Translations under genes and position numbers: made by a program
Shown here: piece by piece, positions 5,022 to 19,562 of the stretch
How positions within the stretch are numbered: position 1 is the first letter of the stretch
Layout: each line of letters opens with the position of its first letter
Assembly (NCBI RefSeq): GCF_008189525.1
Contig: NZ_CP043314.1
Span: 270,001-302,000, forward strand
Origin: Candidatus Saccharimonadota bacterium
GTDB lineage: Bacteria > Pseudomonadota > Alphaproteobacteria > CAJXXZ01 > 1604HC
DNA length: 32,000 bases
Reading direction: 5' to 3'
The notes under the pieces: generated by a model
The model's database searches: none
What the model was told of the DNA's origin: nothing
What the model saw: the letters and a program-made list of their open reading frames with translations, nothing else

Positions 5022-5858
5022 TTACTTTATGAATTCTAGAAGTTTTTTACTTATGTGCTTTGAAATTTCATGTAATTCTTTTTCTACGCTGTTTTCAGTT
5101 ATTTTATCTATATTTTTTGTTATTTTTATTTCATATATGAAATTTTTTCCAGAATAGAATTTTAAAAATACATTAAAATAAGCTTTTTTATCAAATAGAA
5201 TTACTGAAACATCTTGTATGTGTATATATAAAGAATTGTTTTTACAGCTTGCTTTAGATTTTTCATTTTTACCTGTTAATATGCACATCAAATCTTTTTT
5301 TATTTCTTCATTAAAAACAGATTCATTATAATTTATTTTTAGATTTGGAATGAAATATGAAGAGATTATTTGTTTTACATTTTCTTTTGTAAGTTTTTTG
5401 AATGAAGTAGGCATGTTTATGTTGTCGCCTTTTATAATTATAAATTTGTAAGGCAATTCTTTTGGTGCTTCGCTTTTTTTATGCTCTGCTGAGCTTGTTG
5501 TGTTTTCATTTGTTTCATTTTCCAAACTGTCTTCCAAGCCATTGTAGGTTTTTATACACTTTTTCTGTTTTGAGAAAACTCGTATGCATTCTTTAGATTT
5601 ATCATTCTCTGATTCTATTTTATACTTCTTATGACTTTCTTGGAAAATTTGCTTACAAAGCTCTTGGTGTTTTTTTTTGCTTTTTTCCATCACTGATGAA
5701 GATTTATTAATATTAGAACTTTGGTTAATTCTTAAATTTATTTCATTATTTGCTGCGCGTAATTTATTATTAAAAAATAAACATGCATGCGTGTAAAGAA
5801 TTAATGATGTTACTTTGTTTGATATTTTTTTTAAGAGAGTCTTTTTTCCTGAAATCAT
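5022..5858 (-). CDS. Hypothetical protein (K/N/S-rich, weakly hydrophobic N-terminus), translationally coupled to the dedA-family gene
   Basis: 278-aa ORF with no motif I recognise. Its ATG overlaps the stop of the upstream DedA gene (ATGA at 5855-5858). The hydrophobic stretch VTSLILYTHACLFF could be a signal or anchor, but it is not a canonical lipobox. Confidence 0.5.
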   Translation of the reverse strand: MISGKKTLLKKISNKVTSLILYTHACLFFNNKLRAANNEINLRINQSSNINKSSSVMEKSKKKHQELCKQIFQESHKKYKIESENDKSKECIRVFSKQKKCIKTYNGLEDSLENETNENTTSSAEHKKSEAPKELPYKFIIIKGDNINMPTSFKKLTKENVKQIISSYFIPNLKINYNESVFNEEIKKDLMCILTGKNEKSKASCKNNSLYIHIQDVSVILFDKKAYFNVFLKFYSGKNFIYEIKITKNIDKITENSVEKELHEISKHISKKLLEFIK

Positions 5859-11710: not shown

Positions 11711-11920
11711 AAAATGAATTTTTTTTATATTTGTAGAGATTGTTTCAGGTTTTTTCCACAGATTTCTAAGGTCTTCTAGATTATCTATTTTTGTATTTGT
11801 ATTTTTGTTAATTTTACTTCTCCTATCCTGTTACATGTTTAAATAAGAAAATAAAGGTTTTATTTTTATATCAGGTTTAATATTTAGTTAAATAGAATAA
11901 TACTTATTTTCATCTTTAAT

Positions 11921-13120
11921 TTAAACTTGATTAGTTTTTTTATGATCTTCTACTATTTCGTTCACTATGATTAATCCTCCATGTACGGGCATCCACTTAG
12001 ATAAGTTCATAGATTTGCTTTCCAAATTAAACTCTTCATTTTTCATTTTTTCTTTTTTCTCTTCAGCTATTTTAACTTCATTTGTTTGATTTGATTTCGT
12101 TAATGTATCCTTTTTTATATTTGTTGTATTATCTTCTGAGGTATTTATTTCATTGTTTAAACCTTCTGAGTTATTGATATATTTATATACTTTCATGATT
12201 AGATTTGAAACATAATCCGGGGTACACATTTCTTCCTTAACACACCAACCTCCAGTGCTGCTTTCGAACCATAATGCATTCCTTAATTGATGATTATCTT
12301 TTGATTTAGACCAAGGAACTAGCATTGCTGGTCTCATTGATGCTGTTAAATCACATATTGTAGAAAAGCCTGCTCTAGCAAATACTAAGTTGCTCCAAGG
12401 TAAAGATGTATTTGTATCAATGAATTTTTCTAGAGATACCTCTTTAAATCCGATGTTTTTGTAAATTTTGTCAAAATATTCATAATCCTTGCCGACTTGT
12501 TGTCTTATAGAGATTTGACTTAAAACTTCTTTAGGTAATTTACTAAAAGCACTTGGAAGTATGAATTTCCAGAATGGTGTGTTTATACTACTTCCAATTA
12601 CTAGTAATTTTATTCCTGAATTAATTTTTATAGGGTAGGATTTTATAGAATGCCTTGGTATTAACCCTACAATAGAAGATTTTTGCTTATTAGCTTTAAT
12701 GTTAAAAGATGATAAAAAGATTTTATTACAAAAATACCCTAGGGCTCTGTTTGCTTTACCCATTATCTGATCACCTTGATATATATACATTTTTTTTCTT
12801 TTTAGTTTAGCTGCTATACAAGCTGGTAGGGATATGTAAGCTCCAAATCCAATCACACAAGAATTAGGATTGTTTTTTATTATTTTCATGGATTTGAATA
12901 TACTTTTAAAGAACTTTATTGGATGTAACAATATATTCGGTAGAATTGGAATTACATATATTTCATCAAATAAAGTTTTATCAACGTATTTGTAGCCTCT
13001 TTGATCGGTGATCATAATTCTTTTTATATTTCTTGCTTTTGCAAAAAATGCAGTACCATTTGCAGTAAAAACATGACCAGCTGTTCCGCCTCCAGAGAAT
13101 ACTATTGTTGAAATTTCCAC
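11921..13120 (-). CDS. murG: Undecaprenyldiphospho-muramoylpentapeptide beta-N-acetylglucosaminyltransferase
   Basis: 399 aa with a GTG start. VFSGGGTAGHVF matches the MurG G-loop (GGTGGH). The C-terminal domain has ARAGFSTICDLTA and HQLRNA. An N/E/K-rich insertion of about 55 aa sits near the C-terminus. Adjacent to murC, as in dcw clusters. Confidence 0.85.
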   Translation of the reverse strand: MEISTIVFSGGGTAGHVFTANGTAFFAKARNIKRIMITDQRGYKYVDKTLFDEIYVIPILPNILLHPIKFFKSIFKSMKIIKNNPNSCVIGFGAYISLPACIAAKLKRKKMYIYQGDQIMGKANRALGYFCNKIFLSSFNIKANKQKSSIVGLIPRHSIKSYPIKINSGIKLLVIGSSINTPFWKFILPSAFSKLPKEVLSQISIRQQVGKDYEYFDKIYKNIGFKEVSLEKFIDTNTSLPWSNLVFARAGFSTICDLTASMRPAMLVPWSKSKDNHQLRNALWFESSTGGWCVKEEMCTPDYVSNLIMKVYKYINNSEGLNNEINTSEDNTTNIKKDTLTKSNQTNEVKIAEEKKEKMKNEEFNLESKSMNLSKWMPVHGGLIIVNEIVEDHKKTNQV

Positions 13121-15061: not shown

Positions 15062-16849
15062 TTATAGAATATGCTCTGAATATCTTTCTAATTCATATTC
15101 TGAATATTTTAGATCAAAGTCTACTATATCCATTTCTTCACTGCTTAACAGGCCAATAAGCCCAGCTGCTCTAAGCATGTCATTAAAATATTTATAAAAC
15201 GGTTTCAAGAGAAAAACCAACCCCTCATTATTAGTTATCGTTTTTCCTATCGAATATTTTTCTAATATAGTTGTGTTGTCTTTATCTAATGTTTTTATAT
15301 AGAAATTAATAGTTTGCCCTAAAATATCTTTACATTCATAAATCTTTAGATAATTTCCACTGAGATTTTGTGTTGATTTGTATATAGTTTGCCCTATACT
15401 TCTGCTAAAAATGGTGCTATGTTTTGAATTAATTTTAAATTCACTTAGGAATTGATTTATGTGGCTTACTAGAGAATGCATAAGCATGTTTCTTCTATAC
15501 TGTTCTGGTGCTAAAGGATATATTCTAATAAACATAACTTTACTAACTTGTGATAGAGCAGCATAAGATCCTGGGTCACAATAAGTTGATATAAGCATTA
15601 AACAATCTGAAGGGATTATTAATAAATCTCCACTATCTATTTCTTGCATGTGTGCTGGATTTGTATTCTCAGTTTCAATCTTTTTTTGTTCGTAATCATA
15701 TTCAATTTCTGCTATAGTCAATTCTTTAAAGTTGTTTATTGCTTTTGTAATGCTTTTAGGTAAAATTTCTGGAAAACCTTCTGTTTTTTGTTTCTTTGAA
15801 ACCTCTAGATCTATAATTTTATAAGCTTTATTCACCTCTTTTTCTTTGCTCTTTTCAAGCTCTTCATATGCTTTTGATTTTATTTCTTTGCTTATTTTTG
15901 AATATATAATTTCATTGTATATAATTCTGCTCTTTGTAGACATATTTTTTAGAAGTTTTTTTAGTTTCTTTAAAAATGATTTCTTTTCTTCCTGCTTTGT
16001 AATAATTAAGTTTGAGTTTTTTCTAGAATCTATTTTAGTAAAATCACTTACCCATTTGTTTATTATTTCTGTTCTGATTTGTGATTCCATAGAAGTTAAA
16101 CGTTCGAATTGTTTTAAGGTTTGAATTTCCTTATATTTACTGCTTCTTAATAGTTCTACGTGTTCTTCCATAAATTCCTGTTCTATGCGCTCTCTAGCTT
16201 TTCTTTCTGATGACTCTGCTATATCTAAGAGTGGGTTTTTAAATATAATATACATTCTGTTTAATTCGAGATTTTCTTCATTTATTATACTTTTCATCTC
16301 TCTCGCACTATCTTGACACAAAGCATCTAAAGATCTTTCTTGTTTGTCTTTAAGATATTTTTCATCTCTAGTCTTTTCTTGCCTTTTGTATTCTCTTTTT
16401 ACTTGTTTATCTGAAATGAAATCAAAAGTTCTTTTTAGATATTTCATTTCGTCAGAGGTTTCATTAAAAGTTTCATCTTCATTTTGTCCTGAATATAGTT
16501 GGTAATGTGATTGATCTATAATTAGCTTTAATAAGCCATTTTCTAATTTCATACTTATCTTATCTGATAAAAATGATCTTTCTGAAGAAATAAATGTATT
16601 TGCTTTTACTAAATATACATCTTTTTCATTAAATTTGACTTCAAATGTAATCTCGTATTCTAAGGGTTTTGTGCACCTTAAGAATCCTATAACATTTTTG
16701 TCTGGCATTTTTTCTCTTAAAGATTCTAATGTGTTTCTAGATTCTAATGTATGTTCTGGTTCGTATTTTTTTTCGATATCTAAATAAAAACAAGATATGT
16801 TTTTTATAAAAAAAGTTAGTAGTAAGAAAGCATTAAATAAAACATTCAT
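15062..16849 (-). CDS. Hypothetical secreted-looking coiled-coil protein with a C-terminal F-box-like motif
   Basis: 595-aa ORF with three parts. (1) Hydrophobic N-terminus MNVLFNAFLLLTFFIKNISC, signal-peptide-like. (2) A long K/E/R-rich, probably coiled-coil middle. (3) Residues about 410-455, LIIPSDCLMLISTYCDPGSYAALSQVSKVMFIRI, fit the F-box consensus L-P-x-E-[IL]-L-x-x-I-x-x-x-L-x-x-x-x-L-x-x-x-x-x-V-[SC]-K-x-W. Confidence 0.6.
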   Translation of the reverse strand: MNVLFNAFLLLTFFIKNISCFYLDIEKKYEPEHTLESRNTLESLREKMPDKNVIGFLRCTKPLEYEITFEVKFNEKDVYLVKANTFISSERSFLSDKISMKLENGLLKLIIDQSHYQLYSGQNEDETFNETSDEMKYLKRTFDFISDKQVKREYKRQEKTRDEKYLKDKQERSLDALCQDSAREMKSIINEENLELNRMYIIFKNPLLDIAESSERKARERIEQEFMEEHVELLRSSKYKEIQTLKQFERLTSMESQIRTEIINKWVSDFTKIDSRKNSNLIITKQEEKKSFLKKLKKLLKNMSTKSRIIYNEIIYSKISKEIKSKAYEELEKSKEKEVNKAYKIIDLEVSKKQKTEGFPEILPKSITKAINNFKELTIAEIEYDYEQKKIETENTNPAHMQEIDSGDLLIIPSDCLMLISTYCDPGSYAALSQVSKVMFIRIYPLAPEQYRRNMLMHSLVSHINQFLSEFKINSKHSTIFSRSIGQTIYKSTQNLSGNYLKIYECKDILGQTINFYIKTLDKDNTTILEKYSIGKTITNNEGLVFLLKPFYKYFNDMLRAAGLIGLLSSEEMDIVDFDLKYSEYELERYSEHIL

Positions 16850-17101: not shown

Positions 17102-17174
17102 GCCGGGTTAGCTCAGTTGGTAGAGCGGCTGATTTGTAATCAGTAGGTCGTTGGTTCGAATCCAATACCCGGCA
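17102..17174 (+). tRNA. tRNA-Thr (anticodon UGU)
   Basis: 73-nt cloverleaf read by hand. Acceptor GCCGGGT/ACCCGGC, D-arm GCTC-AGTTGGTA-GAGC, anticodon arm GCTGA-TTTGTAA-TCAGT (TGT at positions 34-36), variable loop AGGTC, T-arm GTTGG-TTCGAAT-CCAAT, discriminator A. CCA is not encoded. Confidence 0.9.
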
Positions 17175-17338: not shown

Positions 17339-17731
17339 ATGAATAAATTTTTTATTAATAAGTGTTTTTGTTTGACTGTTTTGTACAGCAAACATATTGA
17401 CAGTGGAAACTTGTGTTCAAGAATTAATAATTTCCCAAAATATATTGTAGGAAATGTTTGTTGTTTTAAGAAAAATGAAAGTTCATTTTCTGATATACCT
17501 GAAGATATTATTCAGTATGTTTGCAAGTTTTGTGATTTTAAAGCACATTTACAATTTAGCAATGTAAATAAATATATGCATAAAATAAGAGTTAGAGATT
17601 TGCTTGTAAGGAAATATATATATGATCATATTTTAGCAAAAACAAGCTCACCATATAAAGCTCTTTGTGAAAGCAAGGGAATATTAGGAATGAAAAAAAG
17701 TGATATGTTGATGCGTAAGTATATATATTGA
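17339..17731 (+). CDS. Small hypothetical protein with an F-box-like motif
   Basis: The track ORF 17303..17731 starts at TTG. The in-frame ATG at 17339 (MNKFFINKCF...) seems the more likely start. FSDIPEDIIQYVCKFCDFKAHLQFSNVNKYMHKIRV aligns position for position with the F-box-like motif of the 595-aa neighbour (IP-x-D ... CD ... S-x-V-x-K-x-M-x-x-I). Confidence 0.5.
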   Translation: MNKFFINKCFCLTVLYSKHIDSGNLCSRINNFPKYIVGNVCCFKKNESSFSDIPEDIIQYVCKFCDFKAHLQFSNVNKYMHKIRVRDLLVRKYIYDHILAKTSSPYKALCESKGILGMKKSDMLMRKYIY

Positions 17732-17906: not shown

Positions 17907-19562
17907 ATGAATATATCTAATTTATCCATGAATAAGAATTTACCAAGAACTTGGGCTATGAAATGTGCTCAAAAATTATTAAAAAGGGATTTTATTATTC
18001 TGGAAACTGGATATGGGCCTTCTGGGTTGCCTCATTTAGGCACAGTAGCTGAAGTTATAAGAACAAGAATGATACAAAACTGTTTAGATATTCTAGGAAA
18101 AGAATCTAAAATAATAGTTTTTGTAGATGATATGGATGGATTCAGAAAAGTACCTACAAATCTTCCGAATCAAGATATGTTAGCGAACTATTTGCACCTT
18201 CCTCTTTGTAAGGTTCCAGATCCATTTGGCTGCTGTGAAAGCTACGCTGATCATAATACGAATGAGCTGATTAAGCTTTTAAAAACTTTTGGACTAGAAG
18301 ATAAGGTAGAAATTATGAAATCTAGTGACAAATATAATTCAGGTGAGTTTGATGAAAATTTGGTTCAGGTTCTTAATAATTATGAAAAAATATTAAATGT
18401 AATGTTACCAACCTTAGGAGAAGCAAGACAGAAAACTTATAGTCCATTTCTGCCTATATCTCAGAAAAATGGACATGTTCTTGAAGTTAAGATAGAAAAG
18501 TATTTAAAAGAAGAAAAAAGTATATGCTTCTATGATCAAGGTGAGTTGGTTAAAATGCCGGTAACTGGTGGAAATTGTAAACTTCAGTGGAAAGTGGACT
18601 GGGGAATGAGATGGGCTGCTCTTGGAGTCGATTTTGAGATGTACGGCAAGGACTTAATAGATAGTTATTCTGTTTCTAAACAAATATGTACAATTTTAGG
18701 ATCCAGAGCTCCTAATAATATGGTTTACGAGCTTTTCCTTGATTCAGAAGGAAAGAAAATATCAAAATCTAAGGGTAATGGAATAAGTTTGGAAGAATGG
18801 CTTAATTATGCAACAGAAGATAGTGTAAAGCACTTTTTGTTTTTGAATCCTGATAGGGCAAAAAATCTAGACAAAAAGGATTTGCATAAATATGTAGATA
18901 ATTACTTGTCAGATCTTGAGAAGTATAGGAATTCAATATCAAATTCAGATTTACATTCTAACTTTGCTTTGGATAATCATCCTAATCATCCTAGCTTTGC
19001 TTTGGATAATCATCCTAGCTCTGCTTTGGATAATAGTTCTAGAAAAGATTTTGTTTTAAATGAGCATGATTATAGAAATATCACTGAAAATCCTGTTTTT
19101 TATGTGCATGAAGGTGTAGTTCCACCTGTGTCTAGAGTTTCATATAGTATGATTTTAAATCTTGCTAAAGGATTAAGAAGCCCTGATTTCCTTACTTTCA
19201 AAAATTTTATAGAAAATAAGATTGGGAAATTAAATATAACAGAAGACAAGGTTGTAGAATCAGTTTTTAAGTTTTATGAATCTTACAAAACAAAACCTTC
19301 TGAAACTCCAGAATGGATAAAATCTTACATGAAAGTTTTCTTGGAGAAATTAGATTCATTAGAGTCTGGAAATGATATGCAGCAAGAATTGTACTTACTT
19401 GGAAACAAAGCTGTTTTTAATAATGATGTAGCAGATTTAAAAAGTTGGTTCAAAGCTATCTATGGAATCTTGTTTGGGGAAGAGTCTGGACCAAGGTTAG
19501 GCCCATTTTTCGAATTATATGGTAAAGATGAAGCTAGAAAAATGATCGAAAGCATTATTTGA
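17907..19562 (+). CDS. lysK: Lysine--tRNA ligase, class I
   Basis: 551 aa. Class I architecture: HIGH-type region GYGPSGLPHLGTVAEVIR and KMSKS-type loop KISKSKGNG, with no class II motifs. Class I LysRS is characteristic of archaea, spirochaetes and many alphaproteobacteria, including Rickettsiales. Confidence 0.9.
   Translation: MNISNLSMNKNLPRTWAMKCAQKLLKRDFIILETGYGPSGLPHLGTVAEVIRTRMIQNCLDILGKESKIIVFVDDMDGFRKVPTNLPNQDMLANYLHLPLCKVPDPFGCCESYADHNTNELIKLLKTFGLEDKVEIMKSSDKYNSGEFDENLVQVLNNYEKILNVMLPTLGEARQKTYSPFLPISQKNGHVLEVKIEKYLKEEKSICFYDQGELVKMPVTGGNCKLQWKVDWGMRWAALGVDFEMYGKDLIDSYSVSKQICTILGSRAPNNMVYELFLDSEGKKISKSKGNGISLEEWLNYATEDSVKHFLFLNPDRAKNLDKKDLHKYVDNYLSDLEKYRNSISNSDLHSNFALDNHPNHPSFALDNHPSSALDNSSRKDFVLNEHDYRNITENPVFYVHEGVVPPVSRVSYSMILNLAKGLRSPDFLTFKNFIENKIGKLNITEDKVVESVFKFYESYKTKPSETPEWIKSYMKVFLEKLDSLESGNDMQQELYLLGNKAVFNNDVADLKSWFKAIYGILFGEESGPRLGPFFELYGKDEARKMIESII
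18960..19036. repeat. Imperfect in-frame tandem repeat inside lysK
   Basis: TTTGCTTTGGATAATCATCCT occurs twice and CTGCTTTGGATAAT a third time. Together they encode FALDNHPNHPS-FALDNHPS-SALDNSS, an insertion between the catalytic and C-terminal domains. Confidence 0.7.

Follow-up and report, generated by a model that had tools for sequence, protein, structure and literature searches.

Two adjacent genes of an obligate protist endosymbiont each encode a short segment with a weak resemblance to the eukaryotic F-box, and the question that this locus raises is whether they encode adaptors that act on the ubiquitin system of the host, or orphan proteins whose likeness to F-boxes is fortuitous. The genes lie in a 32,000-nucleotide stretch of contig NZ_CP043314.1 (positions 270,001 to 302,000 of the forward strand), the whole of which was analysed here and is referred to as the window. 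The bacterium, Ca. Nesciobacter abundans, shares its host, the marine diplonemid Diplonema japonicum, with a second Holosporaceae endosymbiont (PMC13598402), and its newer name is Ca. Ignotibacter abundans (PMC11909080). The genes encode orphan proteins of 595 and 130 residues, here called P1 and P2, and flank a tRNA-Thr gene. From sequence comparison it is plausible, but unproven, that P1 and P2 are a divergent F-box effector pair. The best explanation in our judgement, with a probability of roughly 0.45, is that they are fast-evolving paralogues, specific to their lineage, which carry a divergent F-box-like module, with P1 as an exported Skp1-docking protein. That the module itself has a genuine F-box-type fold is somewhat better than an even bet.

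An F-box-like module in two orphan genes

The two genes, their modules and the intervening tRNA gene are as follows.

15062..16849, minus strand: P1, orphan protein gene, 595 aa (open reading frame, annotated in OY490516.1)
15494..15625, minus strand: F-box-like module of P1, residues 409-452, LLIIPSDCLMLISTYCDPGSYAALSQVSKVMFIRIYPLAPEQYR (Pfam PF00646, BLASTP, hhalign)
17102..17174, plus strand: tRNA-Thr(UGU), between P1 and P2 (ARAGORN; Rfam RF00005, 75.8 bits)
17339..17731, plus strand: P2, orphan protein gene, 130 aa (open reading frame, annotated in the public record)
17486..17617, plus strand: F-box-like module of P2, residues 50-93, FSDIPEDIIQYVCKFCDFKAHLQFSNVNKYMHKIRVRDLLVRKY (Pfam PF00646, hhalign)

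An initial sequence-only reading of the window had proposed an orphan of 595 residues, with an F-box-like motif, a tRNA-Thr neighbour and a second F-box-like gene beyond it. The reading frame and the tRNA gene were both confirmed, and database searches with P1 return only P1 itself. P2 is present across the tRNA gene and carries a similar motif with a PF00646 match of its own (19.9 bits). The motif in P1, LIIPSDCLMLISTYCDPGSYAALSQVSKVMFIRI, indeed begins at residue 410 (nt 15622) and gives a borderline match to PF00646, but helix 3 of the F-box and its tryptophan are unmatched.

PF00646 (F-box), a profile of 43 positions with a curated gathering cutoff of 20.5 bits, is the top Pfam match for both proteins. 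Whole P1 scores 18.2 bits (E=0.0024), residues 409-437 aligning to profile positions 1-29, and whole P2 scores 19.9 bits (E=6.7e-4) over positions 1-33, with extra weak matches to F-box_4 and F-box-like. As isolated segments of 53-54 aa, P1 and P2 rise above the cutoff (21.9 and 21.5 bits, respectively), and both gain a weak F-box-like match. Ten canonical F-boxes, a reference set in which each sequence was verified by Pfam, score 27-47 bits on the same profile as fragments of ~50 aa. The profile search suggested by the sequence-only reading thus returned a borderline F-box, and no PRANC domain: neither PRANC nor Ank families match P1 or P2 in Pfam at E<=10.

The two modules, ~41 residues long where P1 and P2 can be aligned, also resemble each other. 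The best BLASTP alignment of P1 with P2 pairs residues 412-451 with 53-93 at 32% identity (pairwise E=0.003), and the alignments of Pfam with P1, of Pfam with P2 and of P1 with P2 are gapless and in a single register, in which the profile begins at residue 409 of P1 and at residue 50 of P2. Several of the residues common to P1 and P2 fall on the most conserved F-box positions, namely I-P (L-P in the family), D (E) and V-x-K. Across the Skp1-contact core (LPxE[IL][IL]xxI), P1 reads I-I-P-S-D-C-L-M-L-I and P2 reads D-I-P-E-D-I-I-Q-Y-V, such that the proline is kept and the changes of Leu to Ile and Glu to Asp are both conservative. When aligned by hhalign to the ten canonical sequences, the P1/P2 pair profile gives P=0.0013, compared with 0.37 for P1 alone and 0.012 for P2 alone, and all three comparisons place I-P on L-P and V-S/N-K on V-C-K, the expected register. 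An improvement on averaging is a prediction of true homology. An IDSG[DN]L hexapeptide that P1 and P2 share upstream of their modules was not used, as ~0.3 such matches are expected by chance.

These matches were compared with several controls. The window has 63 stop-to-stop open reading frames (ORFs) that are 70 aa or longer, P1 and P2 included; none of the other 61 matches an F-box family at E<=1 (0/61), and eight reversed or shuffled P1/P2 segments gave no F-box family match. The same was true of 149 AT-rich wrong-frame decoy ORFs taken from N. abundans and from three Cytomitobacter-clade loci, which a contig scan based on lysyl-tRNA synthetase (LysRS) had found in Ca. Cytomitobacter primus, C. 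indipagum and a related 619-kb metagenome-assembled genome (MAG; OZ247489.1). The decoys gave 7 Pfam matches at E<=0.05 against 7.5 expected, the best of them (E=5.4e-4) to an unrelated family, and because these counts are near expectation, HMMER E-values appear roughly calibrated for AT-rich composition. A loose F-box pattern matches P1 and P2 alone in 1.25 million decoy residues, the pattern being post hoc and partly circular. The evidential weight lies in the conjunction of adjacent genes, the same family and a consistent register.

P1 and P2 have the properties of native genes. The P1 ORF opens with ATG, the first start codon past the upstream stop, and the longest ORF of P2 begins upstream of its annotated start, at TTG 17303. 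The position-specific GC content of P1 at codon positions 1/2/3 is 0.35/0.26/0.20, and for both genes position-specific GC and synonymous codon usage lie within the range of the neighbouring housekeeping genes, consistent with P1 and P2 being native coding genes. Recent horizontal acquisition was rejected on the same native codon usage. The protein sequence of P1 is identical across two assemblies, and both ORFs are intact in the 616-kb genome (616,058 bp; OY490516.1, GCA_960610765.1). No homologues of P1 were detected by phmmer among 1.84 billion representative proteins, and none of P1 or P2 in a word-indexed search of 5.8 billion clusters; these searches, like that with a two-sequence P1/P2 profile, returned the query proteins alone, and a scan of genome contigs with P1 gave no match. 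Neither gene shows a clear Shine-Dalgarno sequence or promoter, and in a promoter and terminator scan promoter-like sites were fewer than in shuffled sequence.

Proposed export and docking, and competing explanations

Outside the module, P1 consists of the following regions.

16790..16849, minus strand: signal-peptide-like N-terminus, P1 residues 1-20, MNVLFNAFLLLTFFIKNISC (hydropathy)
15650..16462, minus strand: K/E-rich region, P1 residues 130-400 (composition, heptad test)
15065..15484, minus strand: C-terminal region, P1 residues 456-595, of no recognised family (family and PDB searches)

Judged by hydropathy, the N-terminus of P1 is plausibly signal-like. Its core, V3-I15, is a run of 13 hydrophobic, uncharged residues (VLFNAFLLLTFFI) followed by K-N-I-S-C, and its 12-residue hydropathy maximum of 2.38 is comparable to the 2.78 of a SurA-like periplasmic protein of the same genome. 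A core of this length is too short to cross a membrane as a helix. There is a possible cleavage site after the Cys of I-S-C-F, and the segment does not satisfy the PROSITE lipobox rule. Similar signal-like starts with a short n-region are found in other orphans of N. abundans. P2 differs in that its N-terminal hydrophobic segment is much weaker than that of P1, it has no long spacer, and only ~40 residues lie beyond its module.

The K/E-rich region is 41% charged and is probably helical, as assigned by DSSP in a low-confidence AlphaFold model (pLDDT, the predicted local distance difference test score, ~33). It had been taken for a long coiled coil, an assignment that did not hold: by a crude 28-residue a/d score, the heptad mean of residues 130-400 is 0.369 against 0.350 +/- 0.040 after shuffling, 63 shuffles out of 200 score at least as high as the real sequence, and no 28-residue segment scores 0.6 or more. 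A PADLOC match of P1 residues 195-335 (16265-15845) to MTase_II (16.5 bits, E=7e-4) was judged a compositional false positive, because it lies inside this K/E-rich region. The C-terminal 140 residues have no credible match in Pfam, NCBIfam, PHROGs, PADLOC or PDB sequences, in agreement with the sequence-only reading that the rest of P1 belongs to no recognised family, and form a mix of helix and strand in the same low-confidence model. In F-box proteins, the substrate-binding domain sits where this C-terminal region lies.

The surroundings of the bacterium bear on how such a protein could act. A host-associated setting had been presumed for P1 from sequence, and N. abundans is indeed an obligate cytoplasmic endosymbiont of a protist; bacteria of this clade lie free in the host cytoplasm without surrounding host membranes (PMC5845003). 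The published inventory of N. abundans contains secABDEFY, gspD, gspF, pilB, pilQ and a modified type VI secretion system (T6SS), without type I, III or IV secretion systems (T1SS, T3SS, T4SS; supplement of 10.1101/719211). A delivery route other than T3SS or T4SS would therefore be required for P1, by Sec and a secretin, by outer-membrane vesicles or by the T6SS. A Sec-type N-terminus had been flagged as unusual for an effector; it is less problematic in a genome that lacks T3SS and T4SS but has Sec and a GspD/PilQ secretin, since a protein released through the secretin or in vesicles would already be in the host cytosol, with no host membrane to cross, which makes this N-terminus compatible with an effector role. 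On the host side, kinetoplastids, the sister lineage of diplonemids, have SKP1-CUL1-RBX1 (SCF) complexes with Skp1-binding F-box proteins (PMC11285970, PMC8051951), and by extrapolation from these relatives we infer that SCF is present in Diplonema.

The mechanism that we propose goes beyond the resemblance of the module to an F-box by steps that we infer. The signal-like N-terminus would direct P1 through Sec to the periplasm, from which it could leave via the GspD/PilQ secretin of a reduced type II secretion or type IV pilus (T2SS/T4P) apparatus, or in outer-membrane vesicles. It would then be directly in the Diplonema cytosol, if N. abundans lacks a host membrane as described for its clade. 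There the I-P...V-S-K module may dock on host Skp1 while the C-terminal region of ~140 residues recruits a host protein to SCF, by analogy with AnkB, GALA and VirF; alternatively, P1 could sequester Skp1 as its last step. P2 would be a minimal version, either a Skp1 competitor or the bearer of a small substrate-binding tail. We give slightly less than even odds to the prediction that P1 is secreted and acts as an effector by binding Skp1. It is rather unlikely that the scenario holds in full, with a 616-kb Holosporaceae endosymbiont without T3SS or T4SS exporting a diverged F-box adaptor pair through Sec and a vestigial T2SS/T4P secretin into a euglenozoan SCF system. Such a pair, whether self-evolved or anciently captured, would possibly remodel the interface between mitochondrion and symbiont.

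Several observations weigh against this explanation. The whole-protein PF00646 scores of P1 and P2 are both under the 20.5-bit cutoff, and NCBIfam gives no F-box match for either. The Pfam match of P1 ends at position 29 of 43, leaving helix 3 unmatched and interrupted by Y-P-L-A-P. Of the helix-3 motif V-C/S-K-x-W, V-S-K is present in P1 and V-N-K in P2, with Met for Trp in both; neither protein has the combination of this motif with the distal L-W, P2 having M and V at the two Trp positions. Both proteins also have Cys in place of the near-invariant Leu that closes helix 1. A hidden Markov model (HMM) that we built from the ten canonical F-boxes and ran on 10,604 six-frame ORFs from 1.43 Mb gave P2 5.9 bits (rank 17/10,604) and did not match P1, such that the F-box match of P1 and P2 depends on the broader seed of Pfam. 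No F-box protein was found among all PDB sequences by phmmer or hmmsearch with P1, P2 or the pair profile, the top matches (ribosomal S19, RPB9) being insignificant. AlphaFold2 gave a mean pLDDT of 33.0 for the single sequence of P1 and of 39.2 for P2 with the aligned P1 segment, too low to define a fold. The signal-like segment of P1 has no Lys or Arg before its core and hence no basic n-region, and neither P1 nor P2 contains ANK, LRR, WD40 or Kelch domains by Pfam, NCBIfam, PHROGs or PADLOC. No further copies of the module were found in 49 kb of N. abundans (the window and a 17-kb flank) or in the three Cytomitobacter-clade loci. Finally, a lone match at E~1e-3 is unremarkable in a proteome of ~600 proteins, given that a decoy reached 5.4e-4, and if P1 and P2 are paralogues, their two matches are nearer to one conservation-backed event than to two independent ones.

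Much of this evidence would be accommodated if P1 were a Sec-exported envelope, periplasmic or surface protein, in which the module is a lineage-specific helical element that is fortuitously like an F-box and does not bind Skp1. A signal-like N-terminus and a long, charged stretch of helix are typical traits of envelope and surface proteins, and symbionts of this clade are intimately associated with, and physically embedded in, the mitochondrion (PMC13462478), an association in which P1 might serve as a charged helical spacer or adhesin. F-box scores in the noise range of the Pfam curators, the unmatched helix 3 and Trp, the failure of the canonical-seed HMM and the lack of a PDB F-box match all fit such a protein, as do the ~1 chance Pfam match expected per ~600-protein proteome at E~1e-3 (with a decoy at 5.4e-4) and the collapse of the double match into one event if P1 and P2 are paralogues. 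It is harder to see under this explanation why several of the residues shared by P1 and P2, at 32% identity, should fall on the top F-box positions (I-P, D, V-x-K), why averaging improves the match, or why a supposed chance match should be to a family with an enrichment among protist symbionts (PMC4209131); P2, moreover, carries the module with a much weaker N-terminal hydrophobic segment and without the long spacer. We consider this explanation a serious contender, if on balance a doubtful one.

Accepting the F-box ancestry of the module does not require that both proteins work as adaptors. The module could be a true F-box derivative acting as a decoy or inhibitor of Skp1 or Cul1, or P2 alone could be functional and the P1 copy decayed. 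The longer match of P2 (positions 1-33, and three families of the F-box clan) contrasts with the proline-broken helix 3 of P1, the ~40 residues past the P2 module are too few for a typical substrate-binding domain, and Orientia F-box Ank effectors bind Cul1 and alter its nuclear level (PMC11895443). Decay of P1 sits poorly with its intact 140-residue C-terminal region and native codon usage, given the strong deletion pressure on the genome, and these variants are together improbable. Least probable is that the two genes are mis-annotated ORFs, or relics without function, in a fast-evolving, rearranged intergenic region beside a tRNA gene. They have no homologues, lysS synteny is not conserved in Cytomitobacter, and they occupy the most AT-rich part of their neighbourhood without a clear Shine-Dalgarno sequence or promoter; yet an ORF of 595 codons at 27% GC, where ~8% of random codons are stops, cannot be a product of chance, its GC and synonymous codon usage are like those of housekeeping genes, its sequence is identical in two assemblies, and a 616-kb genome tolerates little junk. 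An exported, Skp1-docking P1 with P2 as its paralogue remains our preferred explanation.

Genomic neighbourhood

The GC content of the window ranges from 25 to 37%, with the P1/P2 region as the most AT-rich stretch of its neighbourhood. The other genes are mostly housekeeping genes (murG, aspS, class-I lysS, hemN-like, dut, pgsA, trpS/tyrS-type, ftsW and infB), and besides these and P1/P2 there are a few other orphans and one repeat-derived ORF. The lysS-hemN pair is conserved in C. primus, C. indipagum and the 619-kb MAG, and the upstream side is different in each; aspS, tRNA-Thr, P1 and P2 are not found beside lysS-hemN in these three loci, which hold no syntenic counterparts. Recent duplication or a mobile element as the origin of the pair was rejected: the modules have no DNA-level similarity, and the repeats of the locus are short AT-rich chance matches, among which we count a 22-nt inverted pair (82%) around P1.

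The lysS gene of C. indipagum has a leucine-rich repeat (LRR) protein encoded on either side (L003, 8383-9957, plus strand, and 11762-12670, minus strand), and the two proteins have near-identical signal-peptide N-termini, MNINK[LI]LLS.I[IL]MQS[IM]VAAPD. In both genera, effector-like genes specific to the lineage are thus found near lysS. The C. primus locus (L002, 3679-7425, minus strand) encodes a protein of 1248 aa with a signal-like N-terminus, MKMHCNNKILPFMVICILKVNSAVSA. In the MAG OZ247489.1 (L004, 5543-7789, minus strand) an Era-like GTPase has 748 aa, compared with 289 aa in C. primus, the extra part being a C-terminal low-complexity extension of SDRGGRSFG/GDRPS repeats.

Several further observations concern the window itself. 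A tandem array at 1336-1745, with 9.6 copies of a 36-nt unit and 88% matches, starts from inside the 3' end of tRNA-Thr(CGU), and each unit opens with the last 14 nt of that tRNA gene, TCACCTTTTTGGCA. The array is annotated publicly as a 119-aa gene with SPFWQLNPYSLK repeats, an annotation that is probably spurious, and serial att-site integration or slippage could have left the repeated tRNA 3' ends behind. The class-I lysS gene (17907-19562) has an in-frame short-period repeat insert at 18954-19042, NFALDNHPNHPSFALDNHPSSALDN, and its LysRS product, at 551 aa, is longer than the three Cytomitobacter-clade orthologues (505-514 aa). In infB (29085-32000+), which extends past the window end and whose IF-2 product is 1081 aa in the public record, the IF-2 N-terminal region includes 2.5 copies of a 75-nt in-frame repeat (29896-30084). 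Two orphans, of 442 aa (27523-28851, plus strand) and 278 aa (5022-5858, minus strand), have no match in Pfam, PHROGs or PADLOC, and the former has a signal-like N-terminus, MNLIIRLFNYFSFLFLLS. At the window start, adjacent minus-strand ORFs of 184 aa (17-571) and 224 aa (568-1242) overlap by 4 nt and match the RrnaAD (KsgA-type rRNA adenine dimethylase) profile in its N-terminal part, at positions 9-87 and 26-108, respectively; because both cover the N-terminal part, they look like tandem short paralogues rather than a split gene.

Implications and comparison with known F-box proteins

Possible effectors named in the genome papers on diplonemid endosymbionts are limited to a modified T6SS and LRR proteins, and neither these papers nor a review of the Holosporales (PMC11909080) mention F-box proteins or ubiquitin. 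If our preferred explanation is true, P1 and P2 would be the first ubiquitin-system effectors in the Holosporales and in any diplonemid symbiosis, and their module would be an F-box that binds Skp1 without the helix-3 tryptophan. Binding of Skp1 by P1 would provide the first concrete molecular handle on host manipulation in diplonemid symbiosis. The rule that protist symbionts carry F-box proteins would reach near-minimal Alphaproteobacteria and a euglenozoan host, and such effectors would be able to work without T3SS or T4SS. If the match is instead fortuitous, it is a useful caution on the near-threshold matches that AT-rich orphan proteins can give to short helical profiles.

P1 and P2 can be compared in setting with AnkB (Lpg2144), LegU1 and LicA of Legionella pneumophila, whose short eukaryote-like F-box, in a protist-associated intracellular bacterium, parallels their module. 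The L-P dipeptide of AnkB is a Skp1-binding determinant and is required for binding (PMC2790608); P1 and P2 have I-P in its place, and D for E two residues on. AnkB, a substrate of the Dot/Icm T4SS, has an N-terminal F-box recognised by Pfam and SMART, ankyrin repeats for substrate binding and a CaaX motif for farnesylation, whereas P1 has a central sub-threshold module, a Sec-like N-terminus and no ANK, LRR or CaaX, in a genome without a T4SS. F-box proteins of protist-associated bacteria are known from Legionella, Ca. Amoebophilus and the Parachlamydiaceae, with more than 370 in the last of these (PMC4209131). Those of the Chlamydiae and of Amoebophilus asiaticus, also obligate protist endosymbionts, are lineage-specific and rapidly evolving products of local duplication, with a presumed role in manipulating host ubiquitination (PMC4209131). 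Their families comprise 15 to more than 150 copies with clearly significant N-terminal F-boxes, most often joined to LRRs, and in Chlamydiae they are substrates of the T3SS; N. abundans, an alphaproteobacterium with a 616-kb genome and no T3SS, has by contrast only two visible copies, and both are borderline.

Ralstonia GALA and Agrobacterium VirF are bacterial F-box proteins that bind host Skp1-like proteins as SCF adaptors. They belong to plant pathogens and are delivered by T3SS or T4SS, GALA carries LRRs, and no similarity of either to P1 or P2 is detectable in database-scale protein searches. The Ank F-box-like effectors of Orientia tsutsugamushi and the poxvirus PRANC proteins are instructive in that divergent motifs outside the N-terminus still engage SCF components (PMC11895443). 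The module of P1 is likewise not N-terminal and matches the first two-thirds of the F-box profile; PRANC and F-box-like motifs are C-terminal, following ankyrin repeats, and P1 and P2 have no PRANC match. Eukaryotic proteins of the FBXO class, including kinetoplastid CFB2, resemble P1 in architecture: after the F-box comes a C-terminal region that belongs to no known family. At database scale no similarity of P1 to any eukaryotic protein was detected, and recent transfer from the host is therefore not supported. Canonical F-boxes, at 27-47 bits on PF00646, keep the helix-3 Trp, where P1 and P2, at 18-22 bits, have Met. If real, P1 and P2 would thus join F-box proteins that are already well known in protist-associated bacteria, and would be set apart from them by their lineage, a near-minimal genome, the lack of T3SS and T4SS, a Sec-like leader, a central module and a helix 3 without tryptophan.

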